From: Candidatus Kerfeldbacteria bacterium
GTDB lineage: Bacteria > Patescibacteriota > Patescibacteriia > SBBC01
Length of the DNA stretch: 64,000 nucleotides
NCBI GenBank assembly: GCA_016207275.1
Contig: JACQPY010000013.1
Location: 20,285-84,284, forward strand
Direction: 5' to 3'
The position numbers and the translations under genes are program-made. Shown piece by piece: positions 6,782-12,025 of the stretch. Position 1 is the stretch's first letter. Each line of letters opens with the position of its first letter. The notes beneath the pieces were generated by a model, which was not told the DNA's origin, searched no databases, and saw only the letters and a program-made list of their open reading frames with translations.

Positions 6782-7816
6782 ATGCGCCGTCGCAATTTAT
6801 TAAAGACGGCTCGATTTTCAAAGGAAGTGGCTAAACTACCAAGAAAACGCGTGGCCTTGCTGTTCAGCGGCGGGACAATGTTGTCCGAAAAGCCGCGGCC
6901 CTGGGAAATCGTCAAGAAGCCCGAGCACATGCGTCGCTGGCTCGACAACATGAGCGAAATCAACGTCATCGCCGATGTCGAGCCGGTTTTTATCACCGGC
7001 AAGGGAACCTTGGAGATCGGGCCGGACGAGTGGCTGGCCATGGCTGAAGCAGTGCGCCGGCTGCACCAGTCAGTGGATGGATTCGTGGTGTTGCACGGCG
7101 TGGAAACTCTGCACTACACGGCCAATGCCTTGAGTTTGATGCTGCGCAATCTGCCGTTCCCGGCGGTGGTGTCCGGTTCGCCCTTGCGGATGCCTGGTTT
7201 GGGCGTGCGGCAGGTGGAGTTTGCCGCCCGCGCCAACATTATCAACGCGGTTCAGGTAGCGGCCGCTGACGTGGCCGGGGTATGCGTGGTTTTCGGCAAT
7301 CGGATCATGCCCGCTGCCCAAGTCCAACCGGTCATGGCTGAAGGCGCATTTCAGCTAGTAACCGCCGAGACGGCGCTCCTCGGCCGGGTGGATTTCGGCA
7401 CCAAGCTGTTCGAGAACCGAACCAAGCGATCAAACCGCAAGCCGCGCTGGTCCATCCACCTTGACCAGCATGTGTTCGTGACCACCATCACGCCGGCGGT
7501 GTCGGCCAGCTCTTTCCGCCTGGCTATCCGCGGTGATTTCCACGCCATCCTGGCCCGTCTCCATGAATTGGTGTCCTTGCCGGATTATGTCGAACGCGAA
7601 TTCCGGCGGGCCTTAAAGCACGGCATTCCGGTGGTTCTCTCATCTCGCCATCCGCTGCCGGGCATGGTGGAGTTCATTTCGCTCCTTGGCGTCAGCCCGA
7701 GTATGGCTGTCGTCAAGACCATGTGGGCGCTCGGCGCCACGCGTGAGGCGGGGAAGCTTCGCAAACTGCTTGAGCAGAACGTTGCCGGCGAATTCATCCA
7801 GGGAGGTGCCGCATGA
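6782..7816 (+). CDS. L-asparaginase family protein (type I-like)
   Basis: RVALLFSGGTM resembles the asparaginase TGGTIAG motif, and VVLHGVETLHYTANALSLML resembles HGTDT. Start is uncertain (GTG 6846 possible). Confidence 0.55.
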   Translation: MRRRNLLKTARFSKEVAKLPRKRVALLFSGGTMLSEKPRPWEIVKKPEHMRRWLDNMSEINVIADVEPVFITGKGTLEIGPDEWLAMAEAVRRLHQSVDGFVVLHGVETLHYTANALSLMLRNLPFPAVVSGSPLRMPGLGVRQVEFAARANIINAVQVAAADVAGVCVVFGNRIMPAAQVQPVMAEGAFQLVTAETALLGRVDFGTKLFENRTKRSNRKPRWSIHLDQHVFVTTITPAVSASSFRLAIRGDFHAILARLHELVSLPDYVEREFRRALKHGIPVVLSSRHPLPGMVEFISLLGVSPSMAVVKTMWALGATREAGKLRKLLEQNVAGEFIQGGAA

Positions 7817-8421
7817 TACGGGCATACTTCTACGGTCCGCCGACGACCAAGCGTGATCTGAATGACGTCTACGAAGTAATCAAGGACGTCTGTCAGCGCG
7901 CCGATGTCGCGCTCTCGACCAATACCGAAGCGGAAGAAATTAACTTACCGTCCGAAACCATTGCCGAGCATCGGGCCACCGGCGTGCCGCTGCTCGACGC
8001 GATGCAGGCCATTTTGGTGGAAGGTTCAACGCCTGATCCGCAGGCCGGCTATTTACTGGCCTATGCCTTGGCCGAGAAACGACCGCTGCTGTATCTCTAC
8101 AGCCGCGGCGAGGTGGCGCCGGACGTGCTGCGCTACCTGAATCTGAAGGATATTCCCAAGCACATCGTCATTGCCACCTATACCAAAGACCGGGTAGAGA
8201 AGCTGGTCGAGGATTTCCTGCGTCGGCTCGGCGACATCAAGGTCCGCGAAGTGGCGCGGATAAAGTTTACGCTTCGGTTGACGAAAAGCCTGGACGACTT
8301 CCTTGATTTCAAAACGCGGAACACCAAGCTGTCGAAAGCTGACTTCCTCCGCGAGGACATGGACAAGCGGATGAAGGCGGATGAGGAGTTTCAGCAGCAC
8401 TTGCGGAAAAGGAAGGGATAG
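7813..8421 (+). CDS. Hypothetical protein (possibly a nucleoside 2-deoxyribosyltransferase-like fold)
   Basis: 202 aa, starting MIRAYFYGPP, with a charged helical C-terminus; start overlaps the upstream stop. Confidence 0.4.
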   Translation: MIRAYFYGPPTTKRDLNDVYEVIKDVCQRADVALSTNTEAEEINLPSETIAEHRATGVPLLDAMQAILVEGSTPDPQAGYLLAYALAEKRPLLYLYSRGEVAPDVLRYLNLKDIPKHIVIATYTKDRVEKLVEDFLRRLGDIKVREVARIKFTLRLTKSLDDFLDFKTRNTKLSKADFLREDMDKRMKADEEFQQHLRKRKG

Positions 8422-8718: not shown

Positions 8719-9726
8719 CTATGGCATGTGGGAGTAGCGGAATCGTTCTAGACCACGCCGCTTCGATAAAATCTCCCAACGGAAAACAAGCTCTGGGCTT
8801 CTTTCGTCAATTACTTCGAAGGAACCGTCATGGCGAACGATATAACCCTGGAACGTTCCAGAGATTCCTTTGATGAAGACTTGGTAGTTTTCTGAAAACT
8901 TTCGGGGAGACACCAGTCGATTAAATCTGAGATCAATGGGAATTCTAACCCGTCCGTCCTGGAGCTGCGCCGTACCCTCATGAGTTACCCAGAGCAATGC
9001 ATGGGGCAGAATCGTAAGCTCGTCTCGTTTCGATTTAAATTGTGAGCGGAGACGGGCGGCTCGTTTGGACGGTCCATCCTTTGGGGGACGACGGGCAATA
9101 GAGTCGAACATCGATTCAGTCGCTAGTTCACCGTTAAATCCAAGCAAGGTCATGATGTATTGACGCATGGGCACTTCACCGAGGAGAGCGAATACTCGGC
9201 TCGCCGTCTGTTCTTGAGCGCACCCAAGCTCAAGAGATAACGCGCTCTGTTCTAGATAGGCGTGAACCTCTTCTTCGAAGCGATCGATCATGACATCATA
9301 TGAGGTGTCAGGTAGGTCCGAGAACCGATTGAAGAGATATTGCCGGGAAGTTAACCCAAGTGCCGATCGAACGTGTTGATACTCATGCCAGAGGATGCAG
9401 TATTTAGTTTTAGTTGAGACATTTGGATTGTCAAAGGTATCCGGATTCAGCCTCAGGACTATGAGCGTATCACTGTTTGGTTGCACACTTAAATGAACGG
9501 ACGCCTGGTGGATCATTGATTCGGTTGCACTTAACTCGAAGCCAATTGCTACCCGCTCTGCATCGTAGAGTGAAACTAGGTTATGTCGGATCTCCACTCG
9601 TGGATGAGTTGCCATAAGTTGTTTCATCCGTTCGACGAACCCGAGCAAGTACTCAGGATCAGATTGAGTCACTGAGATTCCTGATGTTGCGAATACCAGA
9701 AACATCCAAATTGCAAAGCCCATCAC
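8719..9726 (-). CDS. Secreted hypothetical protein with an HExxH motif (putative zinc metallopeptidase-like); low-GC gene
   Basis: N-terminal signal peptide MMGFAIWMFLVFATSGISVTQS; motif CILWHEYQHVRSAL. About 47% GC against roughly 60% flanks. Confidence 0.5.
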   Translation of the reverse strand: MMGFAIWMFLVFATSGISVTQSDPEYLLGFVERMKQLMATHPRVEIRHNLVSLYDAERVAIGFELSATESMIHQASVHLSVQPNSDTLIVLRLNPDTFDNPNVSTKTKYCILWHEYQHVRSALGLTSRQYLFNRFSDLPDTSYDVMIDRFEEEVHAYLEQSALSLELGCAQEQTASRVFALLGEVPMRQYIMTLLGFNGELATESMFDSIARRPPKDGPSKRAARLRSQFKSKRDELTILPHALLWVTHEGTAQLQDGRVRIPIDLRFNRLVSPRKFSENYQVFIKGISGTFQGYIVRHDGSFEVIDERSPELVFRWEILSKRRGLERFRYSHMP

Positions 9727-9840
9727 TCATCGCTCCTTCCAGGTTCAGGTATTTAGTTGTCAAACGTCATTTCGTTACAACCACGGCTCTACTCTATCGC
9801 TTTTCGTCTGAGTGTCAAGAGCATTTTCTCGATATTTTTC

Positions 9841-9869
9841 TTGACAACGAGAAAAGCTCGAGCTAGGAT
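9841..9869 (+). promoter_or_regulatory. Consensus sigma70 promoter: TTGACA, 17 bp spacer, TAGGAT
   Basis: Exact TTGACA -35; the predicted TSS falls at the start of the GCCGTCGC repeat block. A second extended -10 (TGATAGAAT) lies at 9916-9924. Confidence 0.45.
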
Positions 9870-9882
9870 GAAGTCAGAAATG

Positions 9883-10016
9883 AGCCGTCGCTAAAAGTCA
9901 GCGCCGTCGCAAAAATGATAGAATACAAAATTTGGTCTTCACAATCTCTCGAATTTTGGAGGAAAGAAGACGATTTTCCCATTGCGCCGTCGCCAAAAAG
10001 CGCCGTCGCAAGAAAA
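9883..10016 (+). repeat. Four copies of GCGCCGTCGC(A/C)AAAA (a fifth copy at 6784-6795)
   Basis: Copies at 9883-9897, 9901-9915, 9984-9998 and 9999-10016. The same decamer overlaps the asparaginase start at 6784-6795 next to a GCCGTC/GACGGC hairpin. Confidence 0.5.
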
Positions 10017-10181
10017 GTGGATAAAGTGCTAACAATTTCCATTATGACCAGATTCATCAGCGCCAAGCATCATAAAAAACCCGATCCAGCCTGGCCGGTC
10101 AGTCATTTCCAGCGCATCATCGCCACGATTCCGTGGTTGTCAACCTCGCCACGCCGCTCCACCGACCCCGCGCATGATGTT

Positions 10182-10327
10182 TCCGGCGGAGCCGGACCCC
10201 GCCGAATGGCTGGGCGGGGTCGAGTTGTTTCTACCCACGCACCAGCCCCGCCATTTGGCGGGACGGTGCGGGGTTCCGCTCCACGGAACCACGTATCGAG
10301 AGAAGCCACGGCCGTGAGGCCGTGGAG
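10182..10327 (+). ncRNA. Cluster of five consecutive GC-rich stem-loops (candidate structured ncRNA or leader); class not identified
   Basis: ccggcggagccgg; ccccgcc(gaatggctg)ggcgggg; ccccgcc(attt)ggcggg; ggttccg(ctcca)cggaacc; ccacggcc(gtga)ggccgtgg. No protein-like ORF (the 156-aa ORF is Arg/Pro low-complexity). Confidence 0.3.
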
Positions 10328-10381
10328 CTTCACCAGACGCGTTTCCCGGCAGCGCCGAACGTTGTGGGAGGTGTTGATTCC

Positions 10382-10468
10382 ATGATCCCGTTAGAGAGTC
10401 CTCTAAAAACCATAAAATGTTTTCGATGTGGGCTGAAAAGTTTATCGGCTAACTCTCTAACGGGATGA
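10382..10468 (+). CDS. 28-codon mini-ORF (MIPLESPLKTIKCFRCGLKSLSANSLTG) with a GGGAGG RBS, enclosed by a perfect 15-bp inverted repeat
   Basis: RBS GGGAGG at 10366-10371 lies 10 nt before the ATG. The IR is atcccgttagagagt (10385-10399) / actctctaacgggat (10452-10466). Leader-peptide or attenuator candidate. Confidence 0.3.
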   Translation: MIPLESPLKTIKCFRCGLKSLSANSLTG

Positions 10469-10792
10469 CCATAATATTGGTCCGGCTGAATTACTTCGGG
10501 CTCTTGCTGATTTTGCTCTTGATATGGCGCGTGATTTCTATGACTTAAGTAACGACCAGCAGCTCCGCTCCGCCCTGGTTGCGGTGGCACCAGGGGAGAG
10601 CGGAAAACCTGCCCCGTAGTCAACCGGAGGTTGTACTACTGGGGACCGATATCTCCACTTGTACATTACAAGCAGCCATGCACCGCGCGCCGCTTGGATG
10701 CATGGTGTAAAGGAGGTGATGACAGCTAATCGCGTGATTTCGTCTTGGTGATCGCAGTCTGGCAGTGAACCATGCAACGAAGGAGGAACCAC

Positions 10793-11248
10793 GTGAAACG
10801 CTTCAGGCTCGTAGCAGCGGGATTGGTCCTGCTCGTCACGGGCGTCATGAACCCGGTCGCCGCGCACGCAGTCGCGGTGTCGGGAAACGTCATGCTCGGA
10901 ACGAAGTCGACACAGGCAGTGGTTGCCGCGGTGCCGCTCGACGCTTCCACCGGCATCATCGATGCCGACCGCGCCGTAACGGTCTTTACCGGACTCAACG
11001 GTCGGTTCACCATCACTCCGCCGAGCGAGCAGTTCATGCTCGTGGCGTGGAATGGCAGCGACGCCGGGATCGTATTCGAACCAGTGAACGGCGTCACCAT
11101 CCATCTCCTTCGGCAGGATCCGCCGATTGTGACCGCCGCGAATACGTGGTGTACCTGCACCCGGCTCTTCTGGGGCTTGTACTACACGTGCTGGTGGGCG
11201 GACTGGGGAAAGATCGGCTGCGTCCTCTGGAAGGGTTGCCAGTGCTAG
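10793..11248 (+). CDS. Secreted Cys/Trp-rich small protein (bacteriocin-like)
   Basis: GTG start with an AAGGAGG RBS 7 nt upstream; signal peptide MKRFRLVAAGLVLLVTGVMNPVAAHA; C-terminus NTWCTCTRLFWGLYYTCWWADWGKIGCVLWKGCQC (6 Cys, 6 Trp in 35 aa). Confidence 0.55.
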   Translation: MKRFRLVAAGLVLLVTGVMNPVAAHAVAVSGNVMLGTKSTQAVVAAVPLDASTGIIDADRAVTVFTGLNGRFTITPPSEQFMLVAWNGSDAGIVFEPVNGVTIHLLRQDPPIVTAANTWCTCTRLFWGLYYTCWWADWGKIGCVLWKGCQC

Positions 11249-11324
11249 CGGACGGGGCGTTTGAGCAATCAAGCGCCCCGCTCAATCCCTCAACATTATT
11301 TATCAACGTAAGATTCTAACGTAT

Positions 11325-11585
11325 ATGATCAACAAGAAAGAACTCATCCTTGCCATCATGCTCTTTGTCGCTCTCTACGTTATTGAAGCGACGCTGATCA
11401 GCACCTTACGGCTGCGGGGGAACGCTGCCATTACGACTGTCTGGGCGACTATCGGTGCGCAAGTGCTTCTGACAATGCTTTTCTACCAACGCAAACGGGT
11501 GACCGCGGGATTCGTTGGCACAATTGCCGTTGGACTTCAGATGATCATGCAGATTACCGGATTATTGATGATTGCGACGACATAG
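11325..11585 (+). CDS. 86-aa two-TM membrane peptide (possible immunity or partner protein)
   Basis: MINKKELILAIMLFVALYVIEATLIST...; low-GC; lies 76 nt downstream of the Cys-rich gene, after a hairpin. Confidence 0.45.
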   Translation: MINKKELILAIMLFVALYVIEATLISTLRLRGNAAITTVWATIGAQVLLTMLFYQRKRVTAGFVGTIAVGLQMIMQITGLLMIATT

Positions 11586-11656
11586 TTCCGCCCTGACGAC
11601 TCTCGGTGGCAGTCGTGATGACAGAATCGGTGGTGCGTAAAGAAAGGGAAAAGCAT

Positions 11657-12025
11657 ATGGATCTTAACCGCGTTACCCTGATCGGGAACCTGACCCGGGA
11701 CCCGCTCAAGAAGTCCGCCCCCAGCGGGCAGACGATCAGCCAGTTCTCGCTGGCGACCAACTACAGCTGGCAGGACGCCGCTACGAAGTCACGGAAGGAG
11801 AACGTCGAGTTCCACAATATCGTGGCCTGGGGCAAGCTGGCTGACATTGTCAACCAGTACGTCAAAAAGGGGAGCAAGGTCTACGTTGAAGGCCGGCTGC
11901 GGAATAGCTCCTGGAAAGACAAAGACGGCAAGCCGCAGCGCAAGACCGAAGTGGTGGCGGACAACCTGATCATGCTCGGTCACCGCGGCCAGCGTGAAGT
12001 GAAGTTGGCCGAACAATCGCAGTAA
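11657..12025 (+). CDS. ssb: Single-stranded DNA-binding protein
   Basis: MDLNRVTLIGNLTRDPLKK...ISQFSLATN...VEFHNIVAWGKLADIV...KVYVEGRLRNSSWKDKDGKPQ is an OB-fold SSB. RBS AAAGGGAAAAG; start set at the internal ATG rather than 11606. Confidence 0.85.
   Translation: MDLNRVTLIGNLTRDPLKKSAPSGQTISQFSLATNYSWQDAATKSRKENVEFHNIVAWGKLADIVNQYVKKGSKVYVEGRLRNSSWKDKDGKPQRKTEVVADNLIMLGHRGQREVKLAEQSQ

Follow-up and report, generated by a model that had tools for sequence, protein, structure and literature searches.

Within the window, that is, the whole 64-kb stretch of DNA analyzed, two adjacent genes of an uncultivated groundwater bacterium, ORF1 (10793-11248, 151 aa) and ORF2 (11325-11585, 86 aa), constitute, judging from their sequences, a new family of two real genes without earlier description. 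As the comparison of related loci has shown, they form a lineage-restricted two-gene cassette that is whole, part-replaced, swapped for an unrelated pair, or absent among the relatives of this organism. The cassette, which like all the features described below lies on the + strand, sits between the promoter and leader of the ssb gene and ssb itself, and the way it behaves makes a Sec-dependent bacteriocin-like toxin/immunity function a plausible, if still tentative, reading of ORF1 and ORF2.

ORF1 was delimited by the ORF call and the alignment of its homologues, and its GTG start at 10793 is supported because the aligned position in the related locus L002 is an ATG. The initial annotation had credited this gene with a strong ribosome-binding site and a Sec signal peptide, and both were recovered: the Shine-Dalgarno sequence AAGGAGGA (10780-10787) lies 5 nt ahead of the GTG codon, and residues 1-26 (10793-10870) show the N-terminus MKRFR, a hydrophobic core and the cleavage motif AHA↓VA of a Sec-type signal, with AF2 pLDDT values below 50 over residues 1-24. 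There is no lipobox Cys, nor any Cys in the first 119 residues, and a lipoprotein assignment was not obtained, the match to LPAM_1 (E 0.2) being under the cut-off. ORF1 is, as predicted from these features, exported by Sec, and its mature form would have ~125 aa and ~13.5 kDa, with 7 K/R versus 8 D/E (by inspection), and be near-neutral, the tail alone being mildly cationic (+2). The N-terminal domain (residues ~28-107) is predicted to fold as a transthyretin/carboxypeptidase-regulatory-like beta-sandwich of seven strands with transthyretin topology, and it is followed by a Pro-rich linker and by a Cys/Trp-rich three-stranded domain (residues 118-151; 11144-11245). The sandwich is similar to the CarboxypepD_reg/transthyretin-like domains of PDB 3e8v, the SusC N-terminal extension 9hfj and carboxypeptidase D 5aq0, whereas the C-terminal Cys/Trp domain has no counterpart in them, and none of the Pfam models for the transthyretin-like fold reached E = 1 on ORF1. 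This domain makes up most of the mature protein and is more than a spacer; giant repeat proteins also match the beta-sandwich part of the ORF1 profile.

The last 35 residues of ORF1 were counted to contain the 6 Cys and 6 Trp first noticed in the initial annotation, a composition far beyond chance given that Cys and Trp account for 0.8% and 1.3%, respectively, of the residues in the long ORFs of the window. None of the six Cys varies among the close homologues, and they follow the pattern C-x-C-x10-C-x9-C-x5-C-x-C, with CxC motifs at either end, and AF2 predicted a compact Trp/Tyr-rich C-terminal beta-meander of 32 residues, with three strands and no helix. Across the homologues, Cys residues are lost or gained pairwise and their counts are mostly even, which suggests that the meander holds three disulfides; the sequence variation supports the pairs C133-C143 and C122-C149 and, by elimination, C120-C151.

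ORF2, identified by alignment and a dN/dS of 0.225, starts 76 nt 3' of ORF1 on the same strand and encodes a small membrane protein. Its low GC content was confirmed (~0.49-0.53, below the ~0.62-0.65 of ORF1), but the two TM segments that had been assigned to it have to be corrected, as its hydrophobic segments are three (residues ~6-27, 33-54 and 59-84); the motifs RG in loop 1 and AGFVG at the start of TM3 are kept. Purifying selection acts on ORF1 and ORF2 alike (dN/dS ~0.22), ORF2 is present at every related locus, and a TM gene of 84-103 aa lies downstream of ORF1 in every locus examined, so that the immunity-gene arrangement proposed earlier holds in all loci as a layout only. The ORF1-ORF2 intergenic region folds at ~-27 kcal/mol and contains, 3' of the ORF1 stop, a strong 11-bp hairpin with a GCAA loop (11254-11279). 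In 10 of 11 loci, those with the unrelated type-2 cassettes described below among them, a corresponding GC-rich hairpin of 10-16 bp is found downstream of the gene for the secreted protein. The terminator-like hairpin of the initial annotation has no U-tract and was not called in the terminator scan; it might serve for partial termination or as a 3'-stabilizer of the mRNA.

Searches with ORF1, ORF2, their homologues and the type-2 pair against Pfam, NCBIfam, PADLOC, PHROGs and PDB sequences gave sub-threshold noise alone, in agreement with the earlier statement that neither protein belongs to a known family; ORF1 fell into no lipoprotein or known adhesin family. The antimicrobial or toxin type ascribed to the Cys/Trp tail was not borne out, since no sequence or fold likeness of ORF1 or ORF2 to any known bacteriocin, defensin-like peptide, toxin or immunity family was found, and solved defensin or laterosporulin structures showed no fold similarity to ORF1. 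Among 1.84 billion cluster representatives, 4 close and ~10 distant homologues of ORF1 with the same architecture were detected. The ~15 relatives of ORF1 are all in Kerfeldbacteria-like contigs, and each one checked adjoins ssb and is followed by a small TM gene. Related loci were found via the pattern of the leader DNA, with about half of the genome matches and 5 of the 6 metagenome matches being chance hits in GC-rich coding DNA. The slot of the cassette is empty in L011 and L016, and it is filled in L013 and L032 by an unrelated (type-2) pair of a secreted protein and a TM protein, which is ssb-linked in L034 too; the type-2 gene of L033 is followed by an uncalled ORF that by eye encodes a small TM protein. 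The hhalign comparison of ORF2 with the type-2 TM protein did not support homology (E 0.16, probability 0.4%), and the alignment of ORF1 with the type-2 secreted protein was confined to the signal peptide. No paralogues of ORF1 or ORF2 were found within the window.

The 60-nt identity profile and the dS values delimited a block that comprises ORF1 codons ~90-151, the intergenic hairpin and ORF2 (11060-11599). At the nucleotide level this block shares 43-67% identity with L002, as against 90-98% in the sequences that flank it at either end, from which it is set off by sharp breakpoints; the N-terminal two-thirds of ORF1 are 90-95% identical. With L001 the block shares 73-95% identity, except for 11060-11119 (55%), and the downstream ssb stretch of L001 is mostly 68-78% identical (90% in a single interval of the profile). 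The synonymous divergence of the cassette is also discordant with that of the flanks in both directions, with dS values with respect to L002 of 0.35 in the flanks, 0.25 in the N-terminal part of ORF1, ~2.0 in ORF2 and saturation in the C-terminal part of ORF1, and with respect to L001 of 0.42-0.45 in ORF1 and ORF2 versus 0.74-1.2 in the flanks. On this pattern of divergence the locus of the window is recombinant, the C-terminal third of ORF1 and ORF2 having apparently been exchanged as one block. A given type of ORF1 does not strictly go with one type of ORF2, because L005 joins a window-type Cys domain (62%) to an L002-type ORF2 (52%, versus 29% to that of the window). Over all pairs, strict co-evolution of the ORF1 C-domain with ORF2 was unsupported, since ORF2 distances correlated no better with those of the C-domain (rho 0.55) than with those of the N-domain (rho 0.55). 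The C-domains of the L002 and window types are still homologous and have the same Cys scaffold.

The downstream member of the unit, ssb (11657-12025; PF00436, E 1.7e-35), encodes a single-strand DNA-binding protein of 122 aa from the conserved MDLNRV start that by inspection lacks the acidic C-terminal tip. Wherever a locus extends far enough, this gene is found immediately to one side or the other, which is true of both cassette types and of ORF1 relatives with as little as ~27% identity. The cassette locus is part of the chromosome, and its synteny with ssb is maintained throughout the lineage. A phage or mobile-element origin was rejected in view of the absence of relatives of the cassette in viral contigs, of PHROG matches, and of any integrase or transposase near the cassette. 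The ABC-transporter and maturation genes that the initial annotation had proposed to look for, and the regulatory genes of bacteriocin loci, were not found nearby, the neighbors within ~10 kb being housekeeping genes.

A predicted sigma-70-type promoter of the leader/ORF1/ORF2/ssb unit, TTGACA-17-TAGGAT (9841-9869), matches the consensus at 10 of 12 positions, and its hexamers are kept at the same place in L001, L002, L005, L013, L032, L006 and L007. Downstream of it, the box (A/T)G(C/A)GCCGTCGC occurs four times in direct orientation, with A-rich spacers in between (repeat family D1; 9881-10014), boxes 1 and 2 being 19 nt apart and boxes 3 and 4 being 16 nt apart. The 19-nt spacing is kept in all loci, and the same boxes are present directly 5' of ssb in the cassette-less L011 and L016 and in the AT-rich relative L034; these elements look like an operator for the regulation of ssb. 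Within the 64-kb window, no further clustered or intergenic sites of a GCGCCGTCGC box regulon were found. RNA pairing between boxes was discarded, since it is perfect only in L007, L015 and L032, where the third box is inverted, and the 8/10 pairing with central mismatches elsewhere does not correspond to a conserved helix.

The 5' leader of ORF1 spans 915 nt (9878-10792; alignment A2) and folds better than shuffled sequences (MFE z = -5.5), which confirms the exceptionally long structured leader of the initial annotation. Its conserved blocks are broken by lineage-specific hairpin insertions, e.g. 10175-10340, 10385-10466 and 10605-10645, and minimal leaders of 250-270 nt are found in L005, L006, L007 and L015. 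No Rfam 15 family reached its gathering score in the window, and there was nothing at E<=1 in 9700-11700 except a chance sRNA fragment. A 156-aa ORF inside the leader (9915-10385) was rejected as non-coding because its amino acid identity to L013 (~53%, judged by eye over ~75 aligned residues) is well under the nucleotide identity (76%).

Covariation revealed two hairpins with a CGGUGGC loop at each locus, one before ORF1 (H1) and a second copy before ssb (Hs). H1 (10573-10595) has a 6-bp stem, CCCUGG/CCAGGG, and a conserved apical UUGCGGUGGCA; 85% of the alignment cells are paired versus 43-51% in slid controls, compensatory changes occur in 5 of 9 pairs, and the observed score was reached by 0 of 500 shuffles. 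In L013 and L032, H1 is also found ahead of the secreted-protein gene of the unrelated type-2 pair. Hs (11596-11616; ACGACU / CUCGGUGGC / AGUCGU), located in the ssb 5' UTR and followed by GAUGACAGAAUCGGUGGUGCG and the ssb Shine-Dalgarno sequence, has 83% of cells paired versus 17-53% in slid controls and compensatory changes in 3 of 6 pairs, with none of 500 shuffles reaching its score, and it is also present in the ssb-only L016 and, in a degenerate form, in L011. An integron-like attC nature of these flanking hairpins was rejected because their conserved loops and variable stems are typical of an RNA operator, whereas attC conserves the stem base. Single-sequence folds and the RNAalifold extension of H1 also point to a possible switch segment (10596-10656), spotted by inspection, in which GGAGAGCGG can pair either with the upstream CCGCUCC (10564-10572) or with the downstream CCG...UCUCC (10646-10656), UCUCC being complementary to the Shine-Dalgarno sequence; the window has a 38-nt hairpin inserted in the loop of this segment.

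The cassette can be compared with several known systems. Class IId type bacteriocins, such as enterocin P and lactococcin 972, are Sec-dependent, unmodified and accompanied by a downstream membrane immunity gene. The cassette is similar to them in its ordinary Sec signal peptide, in the gene for a small membrane protein directly 3' of the structural gene, in having no need of modification enzymes, and in its variable presence between strains. It differs from them in that the mature product of ~125 aa carries a full transthyretin-like domain and is not cationic overall, in the location of ORF1 inside an ssb operon behind a 915-nt leader, and in the lack of any sequence or fold relation; class II peptides are below 10 kDa and usually cationic, which mature ORF1 is not. 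Polymorphic toxin or colicin-type modules have a conserved N-terminal part, a variable C-terminal toxin domain and a cognate immunity gene downstream. In the comparisons of the window with L002 and L001, the conserved N-terminal part and the C-terminal third that diverges together with ORF2 partly resemble this scheme, as does the exchange of cassettes between lineages. In contrast to such modules, the variant C-domains of ORF1 are still homologous, the partner ORF2 crosses the membrane several times, the types are loosely paired in L005, and export would be by Sec only, with no T5, T6 or T7 machinery; neither delivery machinery nor pre-toxin domains were found in ORF1 or among the neighbors within ~10 kb.

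[quoted passage not shown] The ORF1 tail shares with them six Cys, three inferred disulfides, a beta-rich domain of ~30-35 residues, and a sequence that is highly variable around the conserved Cys. However, its Cys pattern is a different one and lacks the CxxxC helix, its probable connectivity is 1-6, 2-5, 3-4 instead of 1-4, 2-5, 3-6, and it is extremely Trp-rich and fused to a larger carrier domain. In pneumococcal competence-induced fratricide, the cibAB bacteriocin and the cibC immunity gene are co-induced with ssbB in the ComX regulon (PMC6560143). In both cases an SSB would be expressed under common control with a secreted factor and its membrane immunity factor, a putative co-regulation that is suggested here by the single promoter and leader and the shared hairpin elements. 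The pneumococcal genes are separate units under a sigma factor, whereas the cassette and ssb are physically joined in a single unit, and there is no homology between the proteins of the two systems.

The bacteriocin/immunity pair proposed in the initial annotation thus keeps the support of cassette behavior, but not that of homology, fold, size and charge, nearby genes or strict pairing. In favor of a toxin/immunity function, the genes are real, fast-evolving, paired everywhere and of no known family, and the joint swap of the ORF1 C-terminal third and ORF2 resembles that of toxin/immunity cassettes. Nor did the findings that the initial annotation had named as refuting this reading turn up, ORF1 being neither a lipoprotein nor part of a known adhesin family, and ORF2 being conserved under purifying selection. 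Against it, the conserved synteny with ssb also fits a core envelope function, and a near-neutral mature protein of ~125 aa is unlike typical class II peptides. If the toxin/immunity reading is correct, ORF1 would be an exported effector whose beta-sandwich may bind a cell-surface target while its aromatic, disulfide-locked tail engages the membrane or envelope, and ORF2 would be the membrane-resident protector or partner of the producer. The hairpin after ORF1 might then provide more ORF1 than ORF2 and ssb, and the shared leader elements might tie the expression of the cassette to the signal that controls ssb.

The main rival, which we regard as rather doubtful, is a variable cell-surface module in which ORF1 is an abundant surface-displayed protein (such as an adhesin by which an episymbiont attaches to its host, or an envelope- or S-layer-associated protein) held at the membrane by ORF2, with a diversity that stems from phage or host selection and not from antagonism. 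Surface proteins, pilins and adhesins often have the transthyretin/CarboxypepD_reg-like fold, and a long structured leader, a strong Shine-Dalgarno sequence and a 3' hairpin, all of them present here, resemble those of highly expressed surface-protein genes. Moreover, a neighboring variable island codes for other secreted proteins (FlgD_ig, M23 peptidase), ORF1 and ORF2 evolve fast relative to their flanks, with recombination, and the loose pairing in L005 is easier to reconcile with an anchor than with a specific immunity protein. Nevertheless, for an anchor it would be odd to be a small, dedicated three-TM protein whose evolution keeps pace with that of the protein on display, the cassette is missing in the close relatives L011 and L016, other relatives have an unrelated pair in its place, and the swapped block, a C-terminal domain plus its partner, is the pattern typical of toxin/immunity modules.

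An improbable alternative is that ORF1 and ORF2 are ssb-linked accessories acting at the envelope in the uptake or processing of extracellular DNA, and therefore belong to one operon with a tail-less, SsbB-like SSB. The adjacency of ssb in all sufficiently long loci, for both cassette types, the promoter and leader common to ORF1 and ssb, the hairpin motif on both, and the missing acidic tip of the SSB in the window are in agreement with such a role, but the ssb linkage could be mere inherited synteny because all loci may belong to one lineage. Furthermore, no similarity to ComEA, ComEC, pilins or nucleases was observed, two unrelated secreted proteins use the slot while some genomes have none, and the fast evolution is atypical of uptake machinery. 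Equally improbable is the broadest proposal, in which an ultra-small episymbiotic bacterium would have a single "kill, protect and capture DNA" operon. One signal, acting through the GCGCCGTCGC boxes and through the CGGUGGC-loop hairpin ahead of both the effector gene and ssb, possibly SSB-bound, would co-induce a secreted lytic effector, a membrane immunity protein and a tail-less SSB. Such an operon would be a fused analogue of pneumococcal cibABC plus ssbB, and recombination within the conserved RNA elements that flank its cassettes would interchange them. A role in handling metals or redox outside the cytoplasm, with the Cys-rich tail binding metal or buffering thiols on a transthyretin-like carrier, in the manner of DUF4198/NikK- or CueP-type periplasmic proteins and with ORF2 as a small NikL-analogous membrane partner, is very unlikely, since the CxC motifs at both ends of the tail and a weak precomputed DUF4198 match on the homologue P0018 are opposed by the pairwise loss and gain of Cys and their mostly even counts, as expected for disulfides, by the compact beta-meander predicted by AF2, by the lack of conserved His or Met ligands and of adjacent transporter genes, and by a presence/absence and allelic swapping that are atypical of metal homeostasis.

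Candidate-phyla-radiation bacteria are uncultivated episymbionts whose means of host attack, attachment and competition are largely unknown, and a full-text literature search found no paper linking Patescibacteria and bacteriocin/immunity pairs. The cassette offers a compact, testable candidate of two small genes amenable to synthesis and expression, with a clear population-genetic signature of cassette exchange at the locus and an unexpected regulatory tie to ssb via two new conserved cis-elements, the operator-like DNA/RNA box and the hairpin motif. If the effector/immunity reading is true, ORF1 would represent a new disulfide-rich, Trp-rich antimicrobial scaffold and the locus would be the first known case in which genes for antagonism are coupled to ssb; should the surface-protein reading be true instead, the locus would mark a variable determinant of host or phage interaction. 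Under either reading, the leader elements of ssb are a new regulatory motif worth describing.

The gene pair that the initial annotation had taken for a bacteriocin/immunity-like module consists of ORF1 (GTG 10793 to 11248, + strand; 151 aa) and ORF2 (11325-11585, + strand; 86 aa), both annotated at NCBI as nothing more than hypothetical proteins, in a groundwater MAG of Candidatus Kerfeldbacteria. ORF1 is preceded by a Shine-Dalgarno sequence, AAGGAGGA (10780-10787, + strand), and its start at GTG 10793 is supported by the ATG found at the aligned position in a close relative. As had been proposed, the protein begins with a Sec-type signal peptide (basic N-terminus, hydrophobic core and AHA|VA cleavage motif), and inspection of its sequence revealed no lipobox cysteine, which speaks against the lipoprotein identity that had been considered. 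Six Cys and six Trp residues lie within the final 35 residues; the long ORFs of the window average 0.8% Cys and 1.3% Trp. An AlphaFold2 model built on a 5-sequence alignment reached a pLDDT of 82.8, with the signal peptide disordered. Because cysteines are lost in pairs among 15 ORF1 homologues (C133 with C143 in two lineages, C122 with C149 in one) and their counts are mostly even, we infer that disulfides join C133 to C143 and C122 to C149, which leaves C120 and C151 as the third pair. This Cys pattern and the deduced connectivity are unlike those of defensin-like bacteriocins (PMC6989792).

ORF2 lies downstream of a strong hairpin and, as had been noted, has a lower GC content than ORF1 (about 0.49-0.53 vs 0.62-0.65), but its product contains three hydrophobic segments rather than the two transmembrane segments originally assigned. 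Although two homologues of ORF2 are detectable by sequence, a gene for a polytopic protein of 84-103 aa directly follows ORF1 in every locus examined, so that conservation of the small membrane gene, which had been left in doubt, is borne out; these genes align among related loci, the closer set having RG and AGFVG motifs in common. In 10 of 11 loci a strong hairpin likewise lies 3' of the gene for the secreted protein, which would fit attenuation, or stabilisation of the transcript, in favour of ORF1. Between the window and the related locus L001, dN/dS was 0.22 for both ORF1 and ORF2, and therefore both are coding and constrained; the two-gene observation stands with minor corrections.

A search of 5.8 billion clustered proteins yielded four ORF1 homologues (47-83% identity), and a profile run against 1.84 billion representatives gave 17 matches, about 10 of which share the size and architecture of ORF1, the remainder being giant proteins that match the N-domain repeat only. 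Neither ORF had a match in Pfam, NCBIfam, PADLOC, PHROGs or PDB sequences, in agreement with the initial failure to recognise a family; no relatives were found in the viral contigs searched and no paralogues in the window. The family and two cis-elements of the ssb unit are undescribed.

Gene order is kept down to 35-40% ORF1 identity: an asparaginase-like gene is followed by the 202-aa gene, the leader, ORF1, ORF2, ssb and, on the minus strand, an aminotransferase. Loci more distant than this still have ssb as a neighbour, in some cases upstream of ORF1 (L024, L025). The 202-aa protein (7813-8421), which belongs to no known family, is encoded ahead of the locus in every case and is 64-95% identical across relatives, exceeding ORF1 and ORF2 in conservation. 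A variable island upstream of the promoter holds a 335-aa ORF (8719-9726, - strand) that has an HEYQH (HExxH) motif and matches no family; in its place relatives have a FlgD_ig-domain protein, large secreted proteins and an M23 peptidase. The ssb gene (11657-12025, + strand) encodes an SSB of 122 aa, short in this lineage and devoid of an acidic C-terminal tip; the SSBs of more distant relatives (L024, L025, L034) have acidic EV(P/Q)xx tails. The transporter or maturation genes suggested as a check were not found among the neighbours in the window, which are housekeeping genes (Obg, thioredoxin-reductase-like, LOG and others). Contigs with common synteny and leader are binned as uncultured Gammaproteobacteria (L018/L007) and Candidatus Microgenomatus auricola (L013), probably reflecting mis-binning, and taxonomic labels of the family therefore call for caution.

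A scan of genomes and metagenomes with a 20-base pattern from the leader start showed the ORF1-ORF2 cassette to be variable. It is absent from two loci (L011, L016), where promoter and boxes lie directly upstream of ssb. In two others it is replaced between leader and ssb (L013:2892-3920; L032:955-1988): the leader, including hairpin H1, is retained, and after it come the genes for an unrelated ~213-aa secreted protein with ...YIYW at its C-terminus and for a 98-aa three-TM protein, and then ssb. The family of this second secreted protein is rare (8 members) and unannotated; it again adjoins ssb in L034, and in L033 an uncalled ORF after its gene encodes, as judged by eye, a small hydrophobic membrane protein.

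Comparison with L002 and L001 revealed a mosaic. The 202-aa protein (95% aa identity, dS 0.37, vs L002; 68%, dS 1.2, vs L001) and SSB (95%, dS 0.35; 74%, dS 0.74) are closer to L002. Whole ORF1 is 68% identical to that of L002 and 83% (dS 0.45) to that of L001; its N-domain shows 83% and 88% identity over the mature ~75 residues (dS 0.25 vs L002, codons 1-95), and its C-terminal part, from residue 98, 43% and 74% (pS saturated vs L002, codons 96-151). ORF2 follows with 33% (dS about 2) and 85% (dS 0.42). A 60-nt identity profile against L002 placed sharp breakpoints near 11060 and near 11600, delimiting the C-terminal third of ORF1, the hairpin and ORF2. This block has been exchanged through recombination, with the flanking conserved sequence as homology arms, and no other evidence speaks as strongly for a toxin/immunity-like module. 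Two observations weaken this case: L005 combines a Cys domain of the window type with an ORF2 of the L002 type, and ORF2 distances track the C-domain no better than the N-domain (rho 0.55 with each).

Related loci share a predicted consensus promoter (9841-9869), just downstream of which lie four GCGCCGTCGC boxes (9881-10014). Their spacing (19 nt and 16 nt) is conserved, and the third is inverted in some loci. The boxes also occur where ssb stands without the cassette and, in an AT-rich relative (L034:2400-2540), ahead of ssb; they are a feature of ssb, not of the cassette, and may serve as a DNA operator or as an RNA repeat bound by protein. The ORF1 leader is, as described initially, exceptionally long and structured (915 nt; folding z = -5.5); minimal versions in relatives measure 250-270 nt. 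Its conserved blocks are broken up by lineage-specific hairpin insertions, one GC-rich (10175-10340) and one at 10605-10645, both absent from relatives, and one common to the window and L001 only (10385-10466). A perfect inverted repeat of 15 bp makes up one of the three, and another lies within the loop of the element beside H1; the insertions resemble expansion segments that a structured RNA can tolerate. Hairpin H1 (10573-10595), in the 5' UTR ~200 nt before ORF1, carries UUGCGGUGGCA, which is conserved, at its apex and has a covarying stem, and Hs (11596-11616), in the 5' UTR 40 nt before ssb, has the same CGGUGGC loop and also a covarying stem. Both are kept across related loci and are the sole intergenic hairpins of this kind in the window; Rfam gave no match at H1, Hs or the leader. 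Together they are a candidate shared RNA operator. Beside H1, GGAGAGCGG is predicted to have two alternative pairing partners, one upstream and the other a downstream UCUCC resembling an anti-Shine-Dalgarno sequence, an arrangement that suggests a possible translational switch.

Our tentative preference is for a bacteriocin-like logic in which an exported effector is paired with a membrane protector, because of the presence, absence and replacement of the cassette, the joint swapping of the ORF1 C-terminal domain and its partner, and the gene layout; cassette genetics give the bacteriocin/immunity reading partial support, and homology gives it none. The main rival, in which ORF2 would anchor a variable surface or attachment module, ORF1, is possible though doubtful, a DNA-uptake role tied to ssb is improbable, and a metal or redox role is very improbable indeed. 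For the coupling of cassette and ssb, the pneumococcal ComX regulon, which co-induces cibABC (a bacteriocin and its immunity factor) and ssbB, may by analogy offer a precedent in regulatory logic (PMC6560143). ORF1 and ORF2 are securely a real, new, lineage-restricted two-gene cassette of the ssb unit, exchanged between strains; ORF1 encodes an exported protein of two domains, rich in disulfides and Trp, and ORF2 its small membrane partner, and the two would tentatively act as effector and protector.
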